Positions 1 to 47,856 of a stretch of DNA of 64,000 bases are shown here, piece by piece. The notes beneath the pieces are model-generated. The model made no database searches. It saw only the letters and a list, made by a program, of their open reading frames with translations, and was not told the origin of the DNA. Location: the sequence record PZ402301.1, one strand, 5' to 3'. How positions within the stretch are numbered: position 1 is the stretch's first letter; each line of letters starts with the position of its first letter. The position numbers and the translations under genes were made by a program. The DNA is from a phage.

Positions 1-242
1 TTCAAATACGCCGCAACCATAGTCAAAGACATATTTGATTTAAAGTGTTTAGAAGGACCTGCAAAAATAGTTAAACCAGACTGCATACCACCATCAATCG
101 CGCCAGAAATAGCGATATTAAGCATTGGGATTTTTGTACGGATTACATCCTTTTCATTAAAGAATTTAGATGTAGTCAGTTCAGCAGTCATTTTAGAAGT
201 GGAAGCTTTAATCAAACGGGATTTTAAATCTGCAATAGACAT
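1..242 (-). CDS. uvsX: UvsX recombinase (RecA-like), N-terminal part; CDS continues beyond window start
   Basis: Minus-strand translation from ATG at 240-242 reads MSIADLKSRLIKASTSK..., matching T4 UvsX N-terminus; lies downstream of gene 42 and the glucosyltransferase as in T-even phages. Confidence 0.85.
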   Translation of the reverse strand, partial: MSIADLKSRLIKASTSKMTAELTTSKFFNEKDVIRTKIPMLNIAISGAIDGGMQSGLTIFAGPSKHFKSNMSLTMVAAYL

Positions 243-319: not shown

Positions 320-1162
320 TTAATCAACTGCTATTGGATGAATAGCATTAAACTTATGAAACGCTTCTGATTTTTCTTTGCGCGAAACACACATGCGAAG
401 AACCTTTAATGGCTCGTCTTCTTCACCTAATGATTTTCGTTTTTCAATATTAGAAGTTTTCCAACGAGCTTGCTCTGGAAACTCTTTATTGATTTGCTCA
501 AGAGCTCTATTATGTTTTGAATTACTACGAATTGAACTACATCCGCCTGGAGCTTGTGCTTTTCCAGATACAACCAGATATTTGAACAAAGCCAAATGCG
601 GATAACCTTGATTAATTAAATTGAGAAATGCATACATATCTTCGCATAAATCAATTTTTCCATACCCAATTTGTTCTGTTGTAAGTTTTCCAAGGTCATA
701 CCAGGTATTCGTGAATCCATATGAATTTTCACGATAATTACCCCAAGATGAAGTAATTTTAAAAATAGGTAGACGAGCATGACCGTGATAATACCCACAA
801 TCCATGGCATCTTCAACGTATTGAATTAATTCATAGAACTGTTCACGGGTTAATTGATTAATTTTATCTACGCAGCGACGATCATCTTTCTTTCGCATTG
901 AACTCATACGAATAGTAGTATCATCGTCAATCATCCAAATTCGTTGACCTGCATACATATCAGTAATTGCTTTACGAGTACCAGCAATTCCATTGACATC
1001 ATCAGGAATAGTTATAATTTTAGCTCTAGACCCATAAGCGTCATAATAAGCTTTTTCTTCGTGTTCACGTACTACAATATGTGGTTCATACTCAGTCGGA
1101 AACATATCAAGGGCAGAAACTGCCCCTACGCGTTGATAGCTTGGAATTACGAATTGAATCAT
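320..1162 (-). CDS. DNA glucosyltransferase-like protein (GT-A type, DXD motif IDDDTTI); unlike T4 beta-gt, possibly T2/T6-type beta-glucosyl-HMC alpha-glucosyltransferase
   Basis: ORF 320..1168 (track start is GTG; ATG at 1160-1162 overlaps gene 42 stop as ATGA); occupies the beta-gt position between gene 42 and uvsX but does not resemble T4 beta-gt as I recall it. Confidence 0.5.
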   Translation of the reverse strand: MIQFVIPSYQRVGAVSALDMFPTEYEPHIVVREHEEKAYYDAYGSRAKIITIPDDVNGIAGTRKAITDMYAGQRIWMIDDDTTIRMSSMRKKDDRRCVDKINQLTREQFYELIQYVEDAMDCGYYHGHARLPIFKITSSWGNYRENSYGFTNTWYDLGKLTTEQIGYGKIDLCEDMYAFLNLINQGYPHLALFKYLVVSGKAQAPGGCSSIRSNSKHNRALEQINKEFPEQARWKTSNIEKRKSLGEEDEPLKVLRMCVSRKEKSEAFHKFNAIHPIAVD

Positions 1163-1899
1163 TTCCACTCACCGTTATAATCTTTTTTCGCAATATGAGT
1201 TTCGCCAGTTTTCCACCAATGGTCAACCAAATAAAAATGACGGGAATACACGTGAAGGCTCCCGACGTTCCATATAATGGAACCTGCTTTATACTGACGA
1301 GTTGAATCACCTGCATTCAAATCAGATACTAATTTATCTAGTACGTATTTTTGCCATGCATAATCATTACGGAATCCGAAGACCACGTCATTTGAACGCA
1401 TGCTTACTACTGCATTGACTTTCTTATCACGAATCAGATACTGTACTGTATTCGTACACATGAAATCTGACATGCCATCTTTATTGTAGTCAAACTGCAT
1501 GGATGGACGAGTATAAATCATGATACCACGTCGAGAATCAGGATTTTGACCAAGTTCAGCTAAACACATATCATATTGGGCATAGTTATCTTCTGACCAG
1601 ATGGCCCAACCATAATTCGAGTTAATTTCGCCTTTAGAAGATGCTACCTGCTGCCAAATCTTTGGTGTTTCACCTGGAATATCTTTAACAAACAAACTTT
1701 GAGACTTATACCATTCAAGTTCACGCTGAATGTATTCATCATTAAGAGCGCCAAAAATAAAAGGTTCATCTGCTACAAATGATGCACCAATAATTTCAAT
1801 AGTTTTAACACCGGTTTTATCAATTACGAAATCTTTTTCCTTTAATGCAAGACCCAAATCAAGACGGATTTCTTCAACTGTCATATAATCGTTAATCAT
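1159..1899 (-). CDS. 42: dCMP hydroxymethylase
   Basis: 246 aa, same length as T4 gp42; MTVEEIRL...VYSRHFYLVDHWWKTGETH matches T4 gp42. Confidence 0.95.
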   Translation of the reverse strand: MINDYMTVEEIRLDLGLALKEKDFVIDKTGVKTIEIIGASFVADEPFIFGALNDEYIQRELEWYKSQSLFVKDIPGETPKIWQQVASSKGEINSNYGWAIWSEDNYAQYDMCLAELGQNPDSRRGIMIYTRPSMQFDYNKDGMSDFMCTNTVQYLIRDKKVNAVVSMRSNDVVFGFRNDYAWQKYVLDKLVSDLNAGDSTRQYKAGSIIWNVGSLHVYSRHFYLVDHWWKTGETHIAKKDYNGEWK

Positions 1900-2873: not shown

Positions 2874-5570
2874 TCAGCCAAACAAGAAGTCTAACGAAGC
2901 TTTTTCCTCATAGTCCATACCTGCCGATTCACACATGCCCGCAAGCGGTTTAACAAACGATTTTTGGAACAAAGTTGAGTAGTCAATCCAAGACAGTACA
3001 TCAGAACGAATTTCTTTTGGAAGTTCCGTACCCGACGGCCAAGCAATGCACTTGTCACCAAATGGATTTCCCTCACGTAATGGAAGAACCATTACCTTAT
3101 TTCCATCCAAAATTGGAGCTACACCTAAACCACTAACAGCTCGACGATAAGTTAGCACCCCACGAATGTGGAACGGGCATTTAAATCCTGGCCAACCTTT
3201 ATCGTCATATTTCGCTATATCGTTCGCGGTTTTTACTTCAGCAATAACTTTATAGTCAAGTTGACGATATTCTTTCTCAAAGTTCTTGTAGTATTCTTGG
3301 ACAGACTCTTCGCCTTCCTGAAGAATACGACGAATACTTTCTTCGAGAGCTTCTTGTACTGCTTTTGGTGTTGAACTCTGCTGAGTTTCCATACCCATGA
3401 TTTTTAGATGCGGTTCAGCAAATCGTTTATCTTCCATATCATAAACGTTCAGAGCATAACGTTTTTTCGCTTTCCAAAATCCACCAACACCCTTTGAACC
3501 AAGTGGAGGGCAAGAAATAGCTTCACGGTCCATATGCATCAGATGCTCGCGGTTATTCATATAATCACATAACTCACGATATGCAACATCAATCATAGGT
3601 TCCATCTTTTTCTTACCAAACTGATTCATAAATTCAACTAAATCATTTTGTTCTTTAAAGCGGTCAAGACCTACTTTTTCAATAACTTTATCTACACAAA
3701 CATATACCGAATCAGTATCACCCGCTGCGATGAAATCTTCACCATCAGTTCCACACACTTTATTCAGATATTCATTAATTTTACGAGCAATCCACTGAAT
3801 ACCAACTTGACCAAAAATTGTGATAGCAGTAGCATTTCGCAAATCATAATAGCGGAAATGAATATTACCAAGAGCACCATAAAGACTGTTGATAAGAATT
3901 TTACGGTTCAGCTGATTTGTGTTAGCAAGTGTAGCTGCTTTTTCACATTCTTCGATCAGACTATTAAGAACAGATTCAGTGTAATTCGATAATTCGTTTA
4001 AGAAATCATCATTGAATTTAACATATCGTTCAACTTCTGGTTTAGTTGAACAAGACCCTGCACCTTTCATAATAATCTTTTTAATAGCTTCGGCATTCAT
4101 TTCTTCAGCGAACATTTTCTTTTTCCAATCTTTACGTTGGAAAAATACTTTAGCGATTTCCTTTGGAATGATACCTTCTTGATGCTTATCATACATCCAT
4201 CCATTAGGAGAACAAGAATATTCATCACTTGGCTTAGGAGCTGTTCCTGCGATATATTCATGAATTGGATGAACTTTAAACTGCCCACGAATAGTCTCAG
4301 GACTAATGTTAACCTGACGAATAATGCTAGGATACAGAGACGTCAAGTCAAAACTCATAATGTATCGACGAGCAATCGGTTTAGGTTCAAATACAAATGC
4401 ACCTGGAAAACTCTGTTTAACGTGCGAACCTTGTTGAGGAATAACCTTATGTTCGCCTTTCAGTGAGTTAAAAATAATAGCGTCCCAAGTTTTAATAGGA
4501 CTCATTACACCAGAAAAAGGCATTTTAGCGTAATAAGACATACTTAAAACTAGATCAATAAACCCACGAATTTTATCAATTGCTTGAACTGATTCTACGT
4601 CAATGATGTTATAACTAATGTATCGTTGATGATTAGTCTCACGAAGTTTATTAATAGGACCATCGTACGGCAATTTACCTTTTTTGGTTTCGTGCTGAGC
4701 AACTGATTCCAAAGAGAATGATGGCAAATTAGTAAATGCGAATTTTTTGTACAAATCTAAATAATCAAGAATAGATACGCCATCAATAGAATAAATTTCT
4801 TTGCTACCGTACATATTTTGAATTAGTTTAGATTTTACTCGACCGATTGGAGAGAAGCGTTTCATACTACGTTCACCGAGAACCATTTTAACACGATTCA
4901 TGATATACGGAACGTCAAATCCCTCAATATTCCAACCGGTAAAAATAGCAGGTCGTTTCTGTTCCCAGAGATTAATATATTCCATGAGCATATCGCGCTC
5001 ATTATCAAATGGCATATAAATTACTCGGTCAAGAATTTCTTGAGGAACTTCATCACCACCTTCACAGTCAAGCTTAGCAGCTAACTTTGCATCCCATTTT
5101 GATACTGAACCGTACATTGAATTCAACAAATCAAAGACGTAAAAACGGTCGTCAATTGAATCATAATGAGTGATAGCATCAATTTCATATTCTGCTTTCA
5201 TTGGGTCAGGAAATTTATCACCAGTAACCTCAATGTCACAGTTAGCTACACGAACAAATTTTCGGTCATAAACAATTTCTGAACCATATGTATCACTGAT
5301 ATAAGCGAGTTTAAAATCGTTCATACCAAGAGCTTCGAGACCGATGTCTTCCATTCGCTTCATCCAGTCTCGTGCATCTTTCATTGATGGAAATTTTTGA
5401 GGAGCGCAATTTTTACCGTAAATGTCTTTGTACTTTGACTCTTCCTTACAATGCCTAAACATAGTCGGAAGATATTCTACTTCACGAGTACGTTCCTTTC
5501 CGTTTTCATCAATATAACGCTCAACAATATTATTTCCGACTGTTTCGATAGAGATATAAAATTCTTTCAT
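2874..5570 (-). CDS. 43: DNA polymerase (family B) with 3'-5' exonuclease
   Basis: 898 aa, MKEFYISIETVGNNIVERYIDENGKERTREVEY... matches T4 gp43 sequence and length. Confidence 0.97.
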   Translation of the reverse strand: MKEFYISIETVGNNIVERYIDENGKERTREVEYLPTMFRHCKEESKYKDIYGKNCAPQKFPSMKDARDWMKRMEDIGLEALGMNDFKLAYISDTYGSEIVYDRKFVRVANCDIEVTGDKFPDPMKAEYEIDAITHYDSIDDRFYVFDLLNSMYGSVSKWDAKLAAKLDCEGGDEVPQEILDRVIYMPFDNERDMLMEYINLWEQKRPAIFTGWNIEGFDVPYIMNRVKMVLGERSMKRFSPIGRVKSKLIQNMYGSKEIYSIDGVSILDYLDLYKKFAFTNLPSFSLESVAQHETKKGKLPYDGPINKLRETNHQRYISYNIIDVESVQAIDKIRGFIDLVLSMSYYAKMPFSGVMSPIKTWDAIIFNSLKGEHKVIPQQGSHVKQSFPGAFVFEPKPIARRYIMSFDLTSLYPSIIRQVNISPETIRGQFKVHPIHEYIAGTAPKPSDEYSCSPNGWMYDKHQEGIIPKEIAKVFFQRKDWKKKMFAEEMNAEAIKKIIMKGAGSCSTKPEVERYVKFNDDFLNELSNYTESVLNSLIEECEKAATLANTNQLNRKILINSLYGALGNIHFRYYDLRNATAITIFGQVGIQWIARKINEYLNKVCGTDGEDFIAAGDTDSVYVCVDKVIEKVGLDRFKEQNDLVEFMNQFGKKKMEPMIDVAYRELCDYMNNREHLMHMDREAISCPPLGSKGVGGFWKAKKRYALNVYDMEDKRFAEPHLKIMGMETQQSSTPKAVQEALEESIRRILQEGEESVQEYYKNFEKEYRQLDYKVIAEVKTANDIAKYDDKGWPGFKCPFHIRGVLTYRRAVSGLGVAPILDGNKVMVLPLREGNPFGDKCIAWPSGTELPKEIRSDVLSWIDYSTLFQKSFVKPLAGMCESAGMDYEEKASLDFLFG

Positions 5571-12508: not shown

Positions 12509-12526
12509 AAAGGGCCGAAGCCCTTT
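12509..12526 (-). terminator. GC-rich stem-loop downstream of alpha-gt
   Basis: aaagggccgaagcccttt. Confidence 0.5.
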
Positions 12527-13727
12527 ATTTTGTAATAATGTCAAACTGTTCTTTAAAGCAGAAGCTTGAATCTTGATGCTGATACAAAAATTCATAAGCT
12601 TTTTCGCGTTCACGGTCATAAAGAGCTCGGTCAGATGACAGTTCTTTAATACGCTCAAATGTTGATTCCATGTCATTTTCATCAAACCAAACGATACCGC
12701 TATCATGAGAAATTAACGGAGTATTATCAACACGGAATTTTAAATTTTCGCCAGTAGATTTCCAAAATACTGGAATTGTTCCACATGCACCAAGCTCGAG
12801 ATGAGTGTATTCTAAAGAACGTTGCAGATATTTTTTGTCCAACTTGCTCAGCTGATAACCAAATCCGGATTTACTCATGCGTTCAAGCATTTCGCTATTT
12901 ACATAACGGTCAAGAATTTGCGTCGGCAAATTAGGAGCAATTTTAATTTGGTCTACTTGATGAAGACGATAATACTCGTATGGAATTCCTTTTTCTTTAA
13001 TAGGAATGAACGCTGGAGAACGTTCCAGACCTTCCATAATAGTACTTAGTCCTGCAGGTTTAAGATGTTTTTCGTGAAAATCAAACATCTGATAAAAGCC
13101 TTTCCATGTAGTAGTACGACCAATCCAACGGTTGATATTCATGTTAATTTCAGAAACATCTTTCCAGTAGGTTGATCGAACTTTCGCAATATCCATAGGA
13201 GGCTGGAAGTTATATACGGTCGGTGCTTCTTCAATATCATCAAACAAAGAAACTGTTTCTGGATACCATTCTTTCATTAAAACTTTATTAAAATCACCAT
13301 TATCAGAATGGCTAAAAATAACATCAGCTCGACGAACAGTTTCTTCTAATCCCAAATTTCGGCGTAAAGAAAGAGAAGAATGGTCATGCTGATAAACTAC
13401 AACACGAACCGAAGGTTTAATGTTATCAATAATTTTTTTATAGTTATTAATCGTGTCTTCTTCGACTGAAGTAGCAGGAACTGAATTGATAATTAGAATA
13501 TCACAATCATTTACCAGCTTAAGGGTTTTATCGTATTCTTTTGCCAATAAAACCGGAATTGAAAATGACTTATAATCATGTGCGCAATTACGAGTAAAAG
13601 ATTTATCTTTAGCATAAACCAAAGTTACTTCATGACCATTTTTAATAAACCAATCACGCTGCTCAAGAGAAAATTTAGTTACACCACAACCTTCAAGACC
13701 TCGAGCCATAAAAATGCATACTTTCAT
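12525..13727 (-). CDS. a-gt: DNA alpha-glucosyltransferase
   Basis: 400 aa as T4 alpha-gt; ...CIFMARGLEGCGVTKFSLEQRDWFIKNGHEVTLVYAKDKSF... matches. Confidence 0.93.
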   Translation of the reverse strand: MKVCIFMARGLEGCGVTKFSLEQRDWFIKNGHEVTLVYAKDKSFTRNCAHDYKSFSIPVLLAKEYDKTLKLVNDCDILIINSVPATSVEEDTINNYKKIIDNIKPSVRVVVYQHDHSSLSLRRNLGLEETVRRADVIFSHSDNGDFNKVLMKEWYPETVSLFDDIEEAPTVYNFQPPMDIAKVRSTYWKDVSEINMNINRWIGRTTTWKGFYQMFDFHEKHLKPAGLSTIMEGLERSPAFIPIKEKGIPYEYYRLHQVDQIKIAPNLPTQILDRYVNSEMLERMSKSGFGYQLSKLDKKYLQRSLEYTHLELGACGTIPVFWKSTGENLKFRVDNTPLISHDSGIVWFDENDMESTFERIKELSSDRALYDREREKAYEFLYQHQDSSFCFKEQFDIITK

Positions 13728-18066: not shown

Positions 18067-18537
18067 TTAATCATGTTTCCACACCCCATCGGTATTTGAC
18101 CAAAGTCGCTGATTATCTGATCCTCGCCACAGCTTTTTGGTCGGAAGATTTTTCTCATACTTCCCATCAATAATAACATCAACATATTTAAGCATTTCTA
18201 GTTGTTTAATATCTTCAAACTTATATCCTGTCCACAACCAAATGCTTTTATTGGGATAAAGATTTTTTACTGTTTGAACAATGCAATGAACAACATCTCG
18301 GTTATCAGGATAGAGAGGGTCTCCTCCAGTTATAGTTAATCCTTCTATATAATCATTATTCAAACATTCAATTAATTGTTCTAGTGTTTCACCAGTGAAT
18401 GGAACACCATTTCTAGCATTCCATGTTGATTTATTATAACACCCTTCGCATTTATGCAAACAACCTGTAACGAAAAGAACGACCCTGCATCCAGGGCCAT
18501 TCACAAAATCGCAGGGATAAAATCTATCGTAATTCAT
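18067..18537 (-). CDS. nrdG: Anaerobic ribonucleotide reductase activating protein (radical SAM)
   Basis: 156 aa; CxxxCxxC cluster motif GCLHKCEGC; downstream of nrdD as in T4. Confidence 0.9.
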   Translation of the reverse strand: MNYDRFYPCDFVNGPGCRVVLFVTGCLHKCEGCYNKSTWNARNGVPFTGETLEQLIECLNNDYIEGLTITGGDPLYPDNRDVVHCIVQTVKNLYPNKSIWLWTGYKFEDIKQLEMLKYVDVIIDGKYEKNLPTKKLWRGSDNQRLWSNTDGVWKHD

Positions 18538-20428
18538 TGGTGTTTAACCCTATGCATGATTTCTTTATTTTTGCCAAGATTAAATCCGCGCTCGTTCGGA
18601 TTTCCCAAATAACCGCAAGTTCTTCTTATGGTGTTCATCTTTTTAGGATCAGTTTCTCCACAAATAGAACAAACAAATCCGTTTTCAGTAGGAGTCATTT
18701 CATGGGTACTTCCGCATGTAAAACATTTATCTACTGGCATATTAACACCAAAATAATCTAAATGTTGTGCAGCATAATCCCATACAGCCTCAAGACCTTT
18801 TAGGTTATTTTTCATATCAGGAAGTTCAACATAAGAAATGTGACCACCTGTCGCAATGAAATGATACGGAGCTTCGCGAGAAATCTTTTCAAACGGAGTA
18901 ATATTTTCTTCTACTGAAACGTGGAAACTGTTAGTATACCAGCCTTTATCGGTAACATCTTTTACACTTCCATATTTTTCGGTATCAAGTTTACAGAAGC
19001 GATAGCACAGGTTTTCAGCAGGAGTAGAATATAAGCTAAAAGCAAAACCAGTTCTTTCAGTCCATTGTTTAAGATGAATATTCATTTTAGTTAAAATTTC
19101 TTGTCCAATATCACGACCGACAAGAATATTCAATTCGTGAATACCAATGTATCCTAGGGACACTGAACTTCTACCGTTTTTAAATAACTCAATTATATCG
19201 TCATCAGGTTTAAGACGAACCCCGAATGCACCTTCTTGATAAAGAATAGGAGCAACAGTAGCTTTAACCCCTTTTAAGGAACTAATTCTACACATCAAAG
19301 CTTCAAAACATAAATCCATTCGCTCATTGAACAATTCAGTAAATTTCTGTTCATTGAACTGTGTTCCAATATAAGAATCTAACGCAATACGAGGAAGATT
19401 CAGTGTTACAACACCAAGATTATTACGTCCATCAAGAATTTCATTACCAGTCGAATCTTTCCATACGCCCAAGAAACTACGACAACCCATTGGAGAAACA
19501 GGAATAGATGAACCGGTGATAGCTTTATTGTTCTTAGCCGAAATGATGTCAGGATACATTCTTTTACTTGCACACTCTAGAGCAAGCTGCTTAATATCAT
19601 AGTTCGGATCGTCTTTATAAAGATTAACACCTTCTTCAACGAACATAACAAGTTTAGGGAAAATAGGAGTTATCCCGTCACGACCAAGGCCTTTAATACG
19701 ATTTTTCAGAATTGCTTTCTGAATCATTCGTTCAGTCCAGTCAGTTCCCATGCCAAATGTAATTGTTACAAAAGGCGTTTGTCCGTTTGAACTAAAGAGA
19801 GTATTTATTCAGTCCAGTCAGTTCCCATGCCAAATGTAATTGTTACAAAAGGCGTTTGTCCGTTTGAACTAAAGAGAGTATTTAGTTCATATTCATAAGC
19901 TTGGAATGCATCGTATACGTCTTTTTCTGTTTTAGATTGGGCATAATTCAACGCATCAGCGATTTGCCATTTTTCTGCATCCTCAATATGTTTTGCATAG
20001 GTGCGTTTAACATAAGGAGAAAGGACTTTATCTACATTCGCAAAAGTCGTTCCACCATATTGATGGGAAGCAACCTGTGCAGTAATTTGTGCCATAATTG
20101 CAGTAGCAACACCGATTGATTTAGGAGTTTCAATCTGTGCATTACCGAGCTTAAATCCGTTCTCAAGCATTCCTTTTAAATCTACTAAACAGCAATTAGT
20201 AAATGGAAGAGCAGGGGAATAATCAATATCATGGAAATGAATAATTCCGCTTTCATGCGCTTTCATAATAAAAGACGGGACCATATTTTTGGCAATGTGT
20301 TTAGACACAATACCAGCCATAAGGTCCCGTTGAGTTGGAAAAACACGAGAATCTTTATTAGCATTCTCGTTTAAAAGGTCTTTATTAGTTTTATGAATCA
20401 ATCCTTCAATTTCTTTTTCAATTGTCAT
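18534..20428 (-). pseudogene. nrdD: Anaerobic ribonucleotide reductase NrdD, frameshifted by a 77-bp tandem duplication; intronless
   Basis: Two ORFs (19805..20428, 207 aa; 18534..19751, 405 aa) both carry GMGTDWTE at the break; together about 605 aa as T4 NrdD; C-terminal fragment has the Zn-ribbon motifs CFTCGSTHEMTPTENGFVCSICG and glycyl-radical region RRTCGYLG. Confidence 0.85.
19731..19884. repeat. Perfect tandem direct duplication, 2 x 77 bp (19731-19807 and 19808-19884)
   Basis: Unit ttcagtccagtcagttcccatgccaaatgtaattgttacaaaaggcgtttgtccgtttgaactaaagagagtattta occurs twice head-to-tail. Confidence 0.95.
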
Positions 20429-47247: not shown

Positions 47248-47856
47248 TTATATACTGTTAATTTGATTTAGAATTCTTTTTGCTTGAGTATGACTTACTC
47301 CAATATGCTTAGCATATTTATATAATTCACCACGCTTAGAAAAATCATATAATTTAGAAATTTCTATTCTTCTTTTTCTTTCATCCGCAGAAACTTTTGC
47401 TTCGTTTGCTTTTGCTATTTTACGTTTAGCTTCTTGAGAATGAGTTTTACCAGCAAAGCCATTCTTCATTAATCCATTTGAAGACCATCCTTTTAATTTT
47501 CCATTAGAATGAGCCTTTTTAACACCCAATGAAATTAATTCGCGTTGCTGATCTGTCATAGGATAATTATTTATATGGTCCCATCCACCTTCACCGCCAA
47601 GTTTTAAATTATACACATCTGGTCTATTTAAAAACTCTTCTGTGACAATATTTTTCTCGGCTTCAAGCATAGATTCTTTATCATCAAAATACTCTAATAT
47701 TTCTTTAGAGAAATTTTCTATACCATACTTGTCTTGGGCTCTTTTTAATAATTTACCAGAACCCATATATCCATCATCTAAATTTTCGGTAGAATGCACA
47801 CCAATATAAATTTTATTATTAATTTTATTTGTTATTTTATAAAGATAAAAATGCAT
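47248..47856 (-). mobile_element. segB: GIY-YIG homing endonuclease gene (SegB-like) inside the tRNA cluster
   Basis: Start taken at MHFYLYKITNKINNKIYIGVHST (GIY-YIG core); NUMOD3-like GKTHSQEAKRKIAKA; C-terminal HTH-like tail; T4 segB also sits in the tRNA cluster. Confidence 0.7.

Follow-up and report, generated by a model that had tools for sequence, protein, structure and literature searches.

At one end of the 64,000-nt stretch of phage DNA analyzed here (PZ402301.1; hereafter, the window), gene 42, ba-gt and the beginning of uvsX follow each other on the minus strand. Gene 42 (1159..1899) codes for a dCMP hydroxymethylase of 246 aa that shares 95% of its residues with T4 gp42 along the full length. 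Immediately downstream of it and upstream of uvsX, the location of ba-gt in T-even phages, is an intact open reading frame (320..1162, stop codon included) that runs from an ATG at 1162 through 280 codons to a stop codon ending at 320. We refer to it as ba-gt, the gene for a beta-glucosyl-HMC-alpha-glucosyltransferase, also known as TAGT. An earlier note on this DNA had described the same 280-aa frame between gene 42 and uvsX, and we recovered it at these coordinates. The window edge truncates uvsX and leaves its 5′ part (3..236), which matches residues 1–78 of T4 UvsX at 78% identity (tblastn) and agrees with the annotation of phage Solly. The frame is a real gene rather than a chance ORF, because the full-length sequence is kept at a nucleotide identity of at least 90% in 475 phage records. 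Over its first 24 kb, the window is 96–97.6% identical to many Tequatrovirus genomes, and no genome in the collection matches this segment exactly.

The automatic ORF list offers an alternative upstream start for ba-gt (GTG at 1168, giving 282 aa), but the annotations of Solly, Geo and two T2 records all begin the gene at the ATG that lies at 1162 here. Read from the sequence, this ATG (1162..1160) overlaps the TGA stop codon of gene 42 (1161..1159) in an ATGA junction (1159..1162, minus strand), which is likewise annotated in Solly, Geo and T2. The overlap suggests that ba-gt is co-transcribed with gene 42 and translated, by coupling, from the gene 42 message. A scan for promoters and terminators around ba-gt returned counts no higher than expected from shuffled sequence, and a terminator-like hairpin (1128..1108) falls within the ba-gt coding sequence.

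The product of ba-gt matches the T2 and T6 enzymes over their full length. It shares 97.9% identity with the T2 protein over 280 aa, 97.3% with the T6 protein over the 261 aa annotated there, and 98.6% (276 of 280 residues) with the Solly protein. The T2 enzyme is itself 280 aa long (Q06717) and the T6 protein (UniProt Q06718) is 98% identical to it (PMC6024577). Family searches agree with this assignment: the protein matches phrog_842 (beta-glucosyl-HMC-alpha-glucosyltransferase) with E = 2.7e-89 and the Pfam family PF20691 (TET-associated glycosyltransferase, TAGT) with 38.8 bits against a gathering cut-off of 27.5, with residues 3–207 aligned to positions 2–205 of the 205 in the profile. 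The activity of a T2/T6-type enzyme corresponds to EC 2.4.1.28. NCBIfam returned no model for this protein and none for alpha-gt, and most of the 475 nucleotide matches (90–99% identity) are annotated as beta-glucosyl-HMC-alpha-glucosyltransferase or glucosyl transferase.

No such similarity links the protein to the T4 enzymes. BLASTP comparisons gave only chance fragments with T4 beta-gt (best E = 3.3) and T4 alpha-gt (best E = 0.6), and tblastn of T4 beta-gt over the whole 64-kb window yielded zero matches at E ≤ 10. These results place the protein outside the T4 beta-glucosyltransferase family (PF09198), whose members have a GT-B fold. A diverged T4-type beta-gt is thus ruled out by the lack of similarity in both searches and by a predicted fold of the GT-A rather than the GT-B type. 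The earlier note had argued that the protein did not resemble T4 beta-gt and that a T2/T6-type ba-gt occupied the beta-gt locus, and had proposed a BLASTP comparison as a check; both views hold, with near identity to T2 and T6 and nothing to T4 beta-gt.

We examined conserved residues in the wider family, of which an exhaustive HMMER search with ba-gt returned 349 cluster representatives (E ≤ 0.001). When 93 full-length members, most of them sharing 20–35% identity with ba-gt, are aligned, four positions are invariant (R11, D80, D175 and G207) and seven nearly so (P7, R63, D79, D81, G186, G206 and R212); every one of these residues is present in ba-gt. A confident AlphaFold2 model built on the same 93-member alignment (mean pLDDT 94.4, pTM 0.92) predicts a GT-A fold, with a single Rossmann-like alpha/beta/alpha domain and an acidic DXD motif where a central strand ends. 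This motif is the IDDDTTI segment that had been singled out previously as GT-A-like, and it maps to residues 78–84. In the model, D79-D80-D81 directly follow strand 74–78 and D175 starts helix 174–184. A published model of the T6 TAGT protein also has a GT-A fold and is placed as sister to GT2 (PMC13216743, 2026). Neither the single sequence nor the 93-sequence profile retrieved a solved structure of a ba-gt relative, and relatives of known structure were reached by fold comparison only. Because there is no solved TAGT structure, residue roles rest on fold analogy with GT2 enzymes: the acidic triad D79–D81 would bind the metal and UDP-glucose, and D175 would serve as the base for inverting catalysis.

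The enzymes needed to make the acceptor of ba-gt are both encoded intact in the window, as in the T-even phages and as the earlier note had held. One is gp42, which also has weak matches to the thymidylate synthase family. The other is the DNA alpha-glucosyltransferase alpha-gt (12525..13727, minus strand), a full-length protein of 400 aa found by tblastn with T4 alpha-gt (91% identity over residues 1–400). Its identical residues number 364 of 400 with T4, 396 with T2 and 398 with Solly. Searches of the 64-kb window for gene 56 (dCTPase) and dam found neither, and synteny with Geo and T4 places both beyond the uvsX end. The pathway seen within the window is thus incomplete: full hmC substitution requires gene 56, and this gene lies outside it.

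By analogy with the work on T6 and the Solly group, gp42 would make hm-dCMP and hmC would be incorporated into the DNA, after which alpha-gt would place an alpha-linked glucose on hmC following replication. The ba-gt protein is then predicted to add a second glucose from UDP-glucose to alpha-glucosyl-hmC in a beta-1,6 linkage, yielding gentiobiosyl-hmC. The historical name of the enzyme suggests an alpha-transferase, but its linkage is beta.

Published nucleoside measurements indicate how much product such a gene set can make. Solly and six other Tequatroviruses contain about one third hmC, two thirds alpha-5-gentiobiosyl-mdC and traces of alpha-glucosyl-mdC, and the authors hold the TAGT gene, which is syntenic with T4 beta-gt, responsible for the disaccharide (PMC13390438, 2026). 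Geo, EL and BGP have a 1:2:2 ratio, and beta-glucosyl-mdC was detected in none of these measured Tequatroviruses (PMC13390438). Furthermore, gentiobiosylation reaches 72% in T6 and only 5% in T2, although the gene is common to both (PMC13390438). Together with the Geo group ratio, this contrast means that the presence of ba-gt alone does not set the level of gentiobiosylation.

Thus, the T2/T6-like modification pattern anticipated in the earlier note stands as far as the gene, its partners and the published data go, but the label spans 5–72% and needs refining. The sequence favors the high end. The window protein keeps R11 and P251, and the Solly alpha-gt and TAGT proteins differ from those of the window by only two and four residues, respectively, which argues for a T6/Solly-like gentiobiosyl fraction. 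On this basis the virion DNA is predicted to carry about two thirds gentiobiosyl-hmC and one third unglucosylated hmC; mono-alpha-glucosyl-hmC should be scarce and beta-glucosyl-hmC absent. We assign a probability of roughly 0.93 to the reading that 320..1162 encodes a T2/T6-type ba-gt/TAGT enzyme with this activity and a yield near two thirds gentiobiosyl-hmC, both as predicted from its relatives.

The alternative that fares best, though it is quite unlikely, is that ba-gt makes little product as in T2, so that the DNA would be mostly mono-alpha-glucosyl-hmC with a few per cent gentiobiosyl-hmC. The near-identical gene of T2 does coincide with low gentiobiosylation, and the alpha-gt of the window is of the T2 type. 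However, Solly has the same T2-type alpha-gt and still reaches about two thirds gentiobiosyl-hmC. T2 also differs at two positions: R11H and P251S are found in all three independent T2 genome records (ba-gt at 3001–3843, 3295–4137 and 3286–4128), whereas P251 is kept in the window, T6 and Solly, and position 11 is an arginine in all 93 divergent family members as well as in Geo, Solly, T6 and the window. From these comparisons we hypothesize that R11H in T2, as opposed to R11 elsewhere, could account for the difference between about 5% and 72% gentiobiosyl-hmC.

Slightly less probable still is an effect of the few residues that distinguish this ba-gt from the T2, T6 and Solly alleles (E24, K92, I101 and K226), which would shift the extent or sequence context of gentiobiosylation and produce a pattern unseen in the measured T-even phages. 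If so, the altered gentiobiosylation might bring new sensitivities to restriction enzymes or glycosylases.

Far more remote is direct glycosylation of hmC by the enzyme, or its use of a sugar other than glucose, such as the arabinose of RB69-like phages. This reading draws on the 288 of 753 phage genomes that have TAGT homologues without alpha-gt or beta-gt (PMC13216743), which indicates that acceptor specificity is not uniform across the wider TAGT family. Yet a change of specificity is very unlikely for a protein 97–99% identical to those of T2, T6 and Solly, and the DNA of the Solly group has neither beta-glucosyl-hmC nor arabinose (PMC13390438). Thomas et al. (2018, PMC6024577) also detected no ba-gt homologue in RB69, and this result, together with the identity to T2 and T6, rules out an RB69-type arabinosyltransferase.

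Equally improbable is a non-functional remnant at 320..1162, since the ORF is full length with a standard start and all the invariant residues, even though two laboratory T6 records are damaged in ba-gt and such lesions can therefore arise in laboratory stocks. In T6 MH550421 a TAG at codon 10 interrupts the gene (4138–4980), whose annotation starts at Met20 and covers 261 aa, and in T6 AP018814 (3135–3974) one Asp codon of the DDD motif is missing. Such lesions are unexpected in T6, where gentiobiosylation is highest, and may reflect stock differences or sequencing errors.

The gene had been presented in the earlier note as a different one at the beta-gt locus. This is true relative to T4 only, because ba-gt is the majority arrangement in Tequatrovirus. 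A tblastn search found 690 phage records with a ba-gt match, about 470 of them at 95% identity or higher, and a second group at 60–80% identity in T4-like phages of Klebsiella, Enterobacter, Citrobacter and Salmonella. By comparison, a T4-type beta-gt at 90% identity or higher is present in about 29 records. Our counts (about 29 versus 470) agree with a survey that found the alpha-gt and beta-gt pair in only 6 of 753 phage genomes (PMC13216743). Among the RB phages, 12 of the 15 that have been sequenced possess alpha-gt and ba-gt (Thomas et al., 2018, PMC6024577). Hence, ba-gt at this locus is the norm in Tequatrovirus and T4 is the exception.

The T4 locus retains what looks like a trace of the gene. 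Positions 4239–4263 of T4, between segA and beta-gt, are identical at 24 of 25 nucleotides to positions 318–342 of the window, which span the 3′ terminus of ba-gt, stop codon included. This 25-nt remnant is positioned just upstream of segA in T4, and a second short T4 match, to the spacer upstream of uvsX, adjoins beta-gt. The remnant and the spacer match suggest that the T4 lineage once had a ba-gt gene whose place beta-gt and segA have taken. In T4, segA lies between beta-gt and uvsX; no segA is present at the ba-gt locus of the window. Elsewhere in the window (47407–47847, minus strand), far from the segA position of T4, is a stretch 44% identical over 147 residues to T4 SegA, a GIY-YIG homing endonuclease.

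Other features of the window also set it apart from Solly. In Solly, the spacer between imm.1 and gene 43 is about 246 bp longer and gene 43 ends at 3120, against 2874 in the window, where the spacer (2312–2881) lacks the small ORFs SOLLY_049 and SOLLY_050. Furthermore, nrdD, a single 605-aa gene in Solly, has an internal tandem duplication of 77 bp (19730–19889; 2.1 copies, 97% match) that shifts the frame and splits the gene into two ORFs (19805..20428 and 18534..19751) with the peptide MGTDWTE common to both. Either a genuine mutation or an assembly artefact could explain the duplication.

Which host defenses can attack the phage depends on the kind of sugar that hmC carries. McrBC and McrA target unglucosylated hmC, and enzymes of the GmrSD/BrxU type cut unglucosylated, alpha-glucosylated and gentiobiosylated forms alike (PMC13216743; PMC13390438; PMC11078745). 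The glycosylase Brig1 targets alpha-glucosyl-hmC and does not degrade gentiobiosylated T6 DNA in vitro (PMC11078745). Deletion of ba-gt makes T6 DNA degradable by Brig1 and the phage more sensitive, and the authors presume that the mutant carries only alpha-glucosyl-hmC (PMC11078745). Published work already covers the gene and its distribution as well as the protein and its fold, and our analysis adds nothing new to biology in this respect. Recognizing the alpha-gt and ba-gt set in this phage is useful for annotation and host range prediction.

Among known systems, the T2 and T6 genes (ba-gt or ggt) share with the window the locus between gene 42 and uvsX, the length of 280 aa, the DDD motif and the partners gene 42 and alpha-gt. 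The window protein differs from T2 by six substitutions and from T6 by seven over the common 261 residues. SOLLY_044 of phage Solly (OY720021) is also close, with identical coordinates in the aligned region, 276 of 280 ba-gt and 398 of 400 alpha-gt residues in common, and four conservative substitutions in ba-gt (E24D, K92R, I101V and K226R), although the window is only about 96% identical to Solly over its first 24 kb. The PF20691 family as a whole resembles the window protein in that its entire 205-position profile is covered and the conserved residues are present, but its members are mostly 20–35% identical and the functional experiments found in the literature concern the T-even clade only. 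T4 beta-gt has in common with ba-gt a syntenic position, the UDP-glucose donor and a beta linkage on phage DNA. In contrast, it has a GT-B fold (PDB 1JG7, per PMC13216743) rather than GT-A, no sequence similarity, a neighboring segA gene that is lacking here, and hmC itself as acceptor, whereas the predicted acceptor of ba-gt is alpha-glucosyl-hmC. The inverting GT-A enzymes of the GT2 family (TarS, TarP, SpsA and AvpGT) are 8–15% identical to ba-gt, beyond detection by sequence searches, and their acceptors are polymers or lipids rather than DNA.
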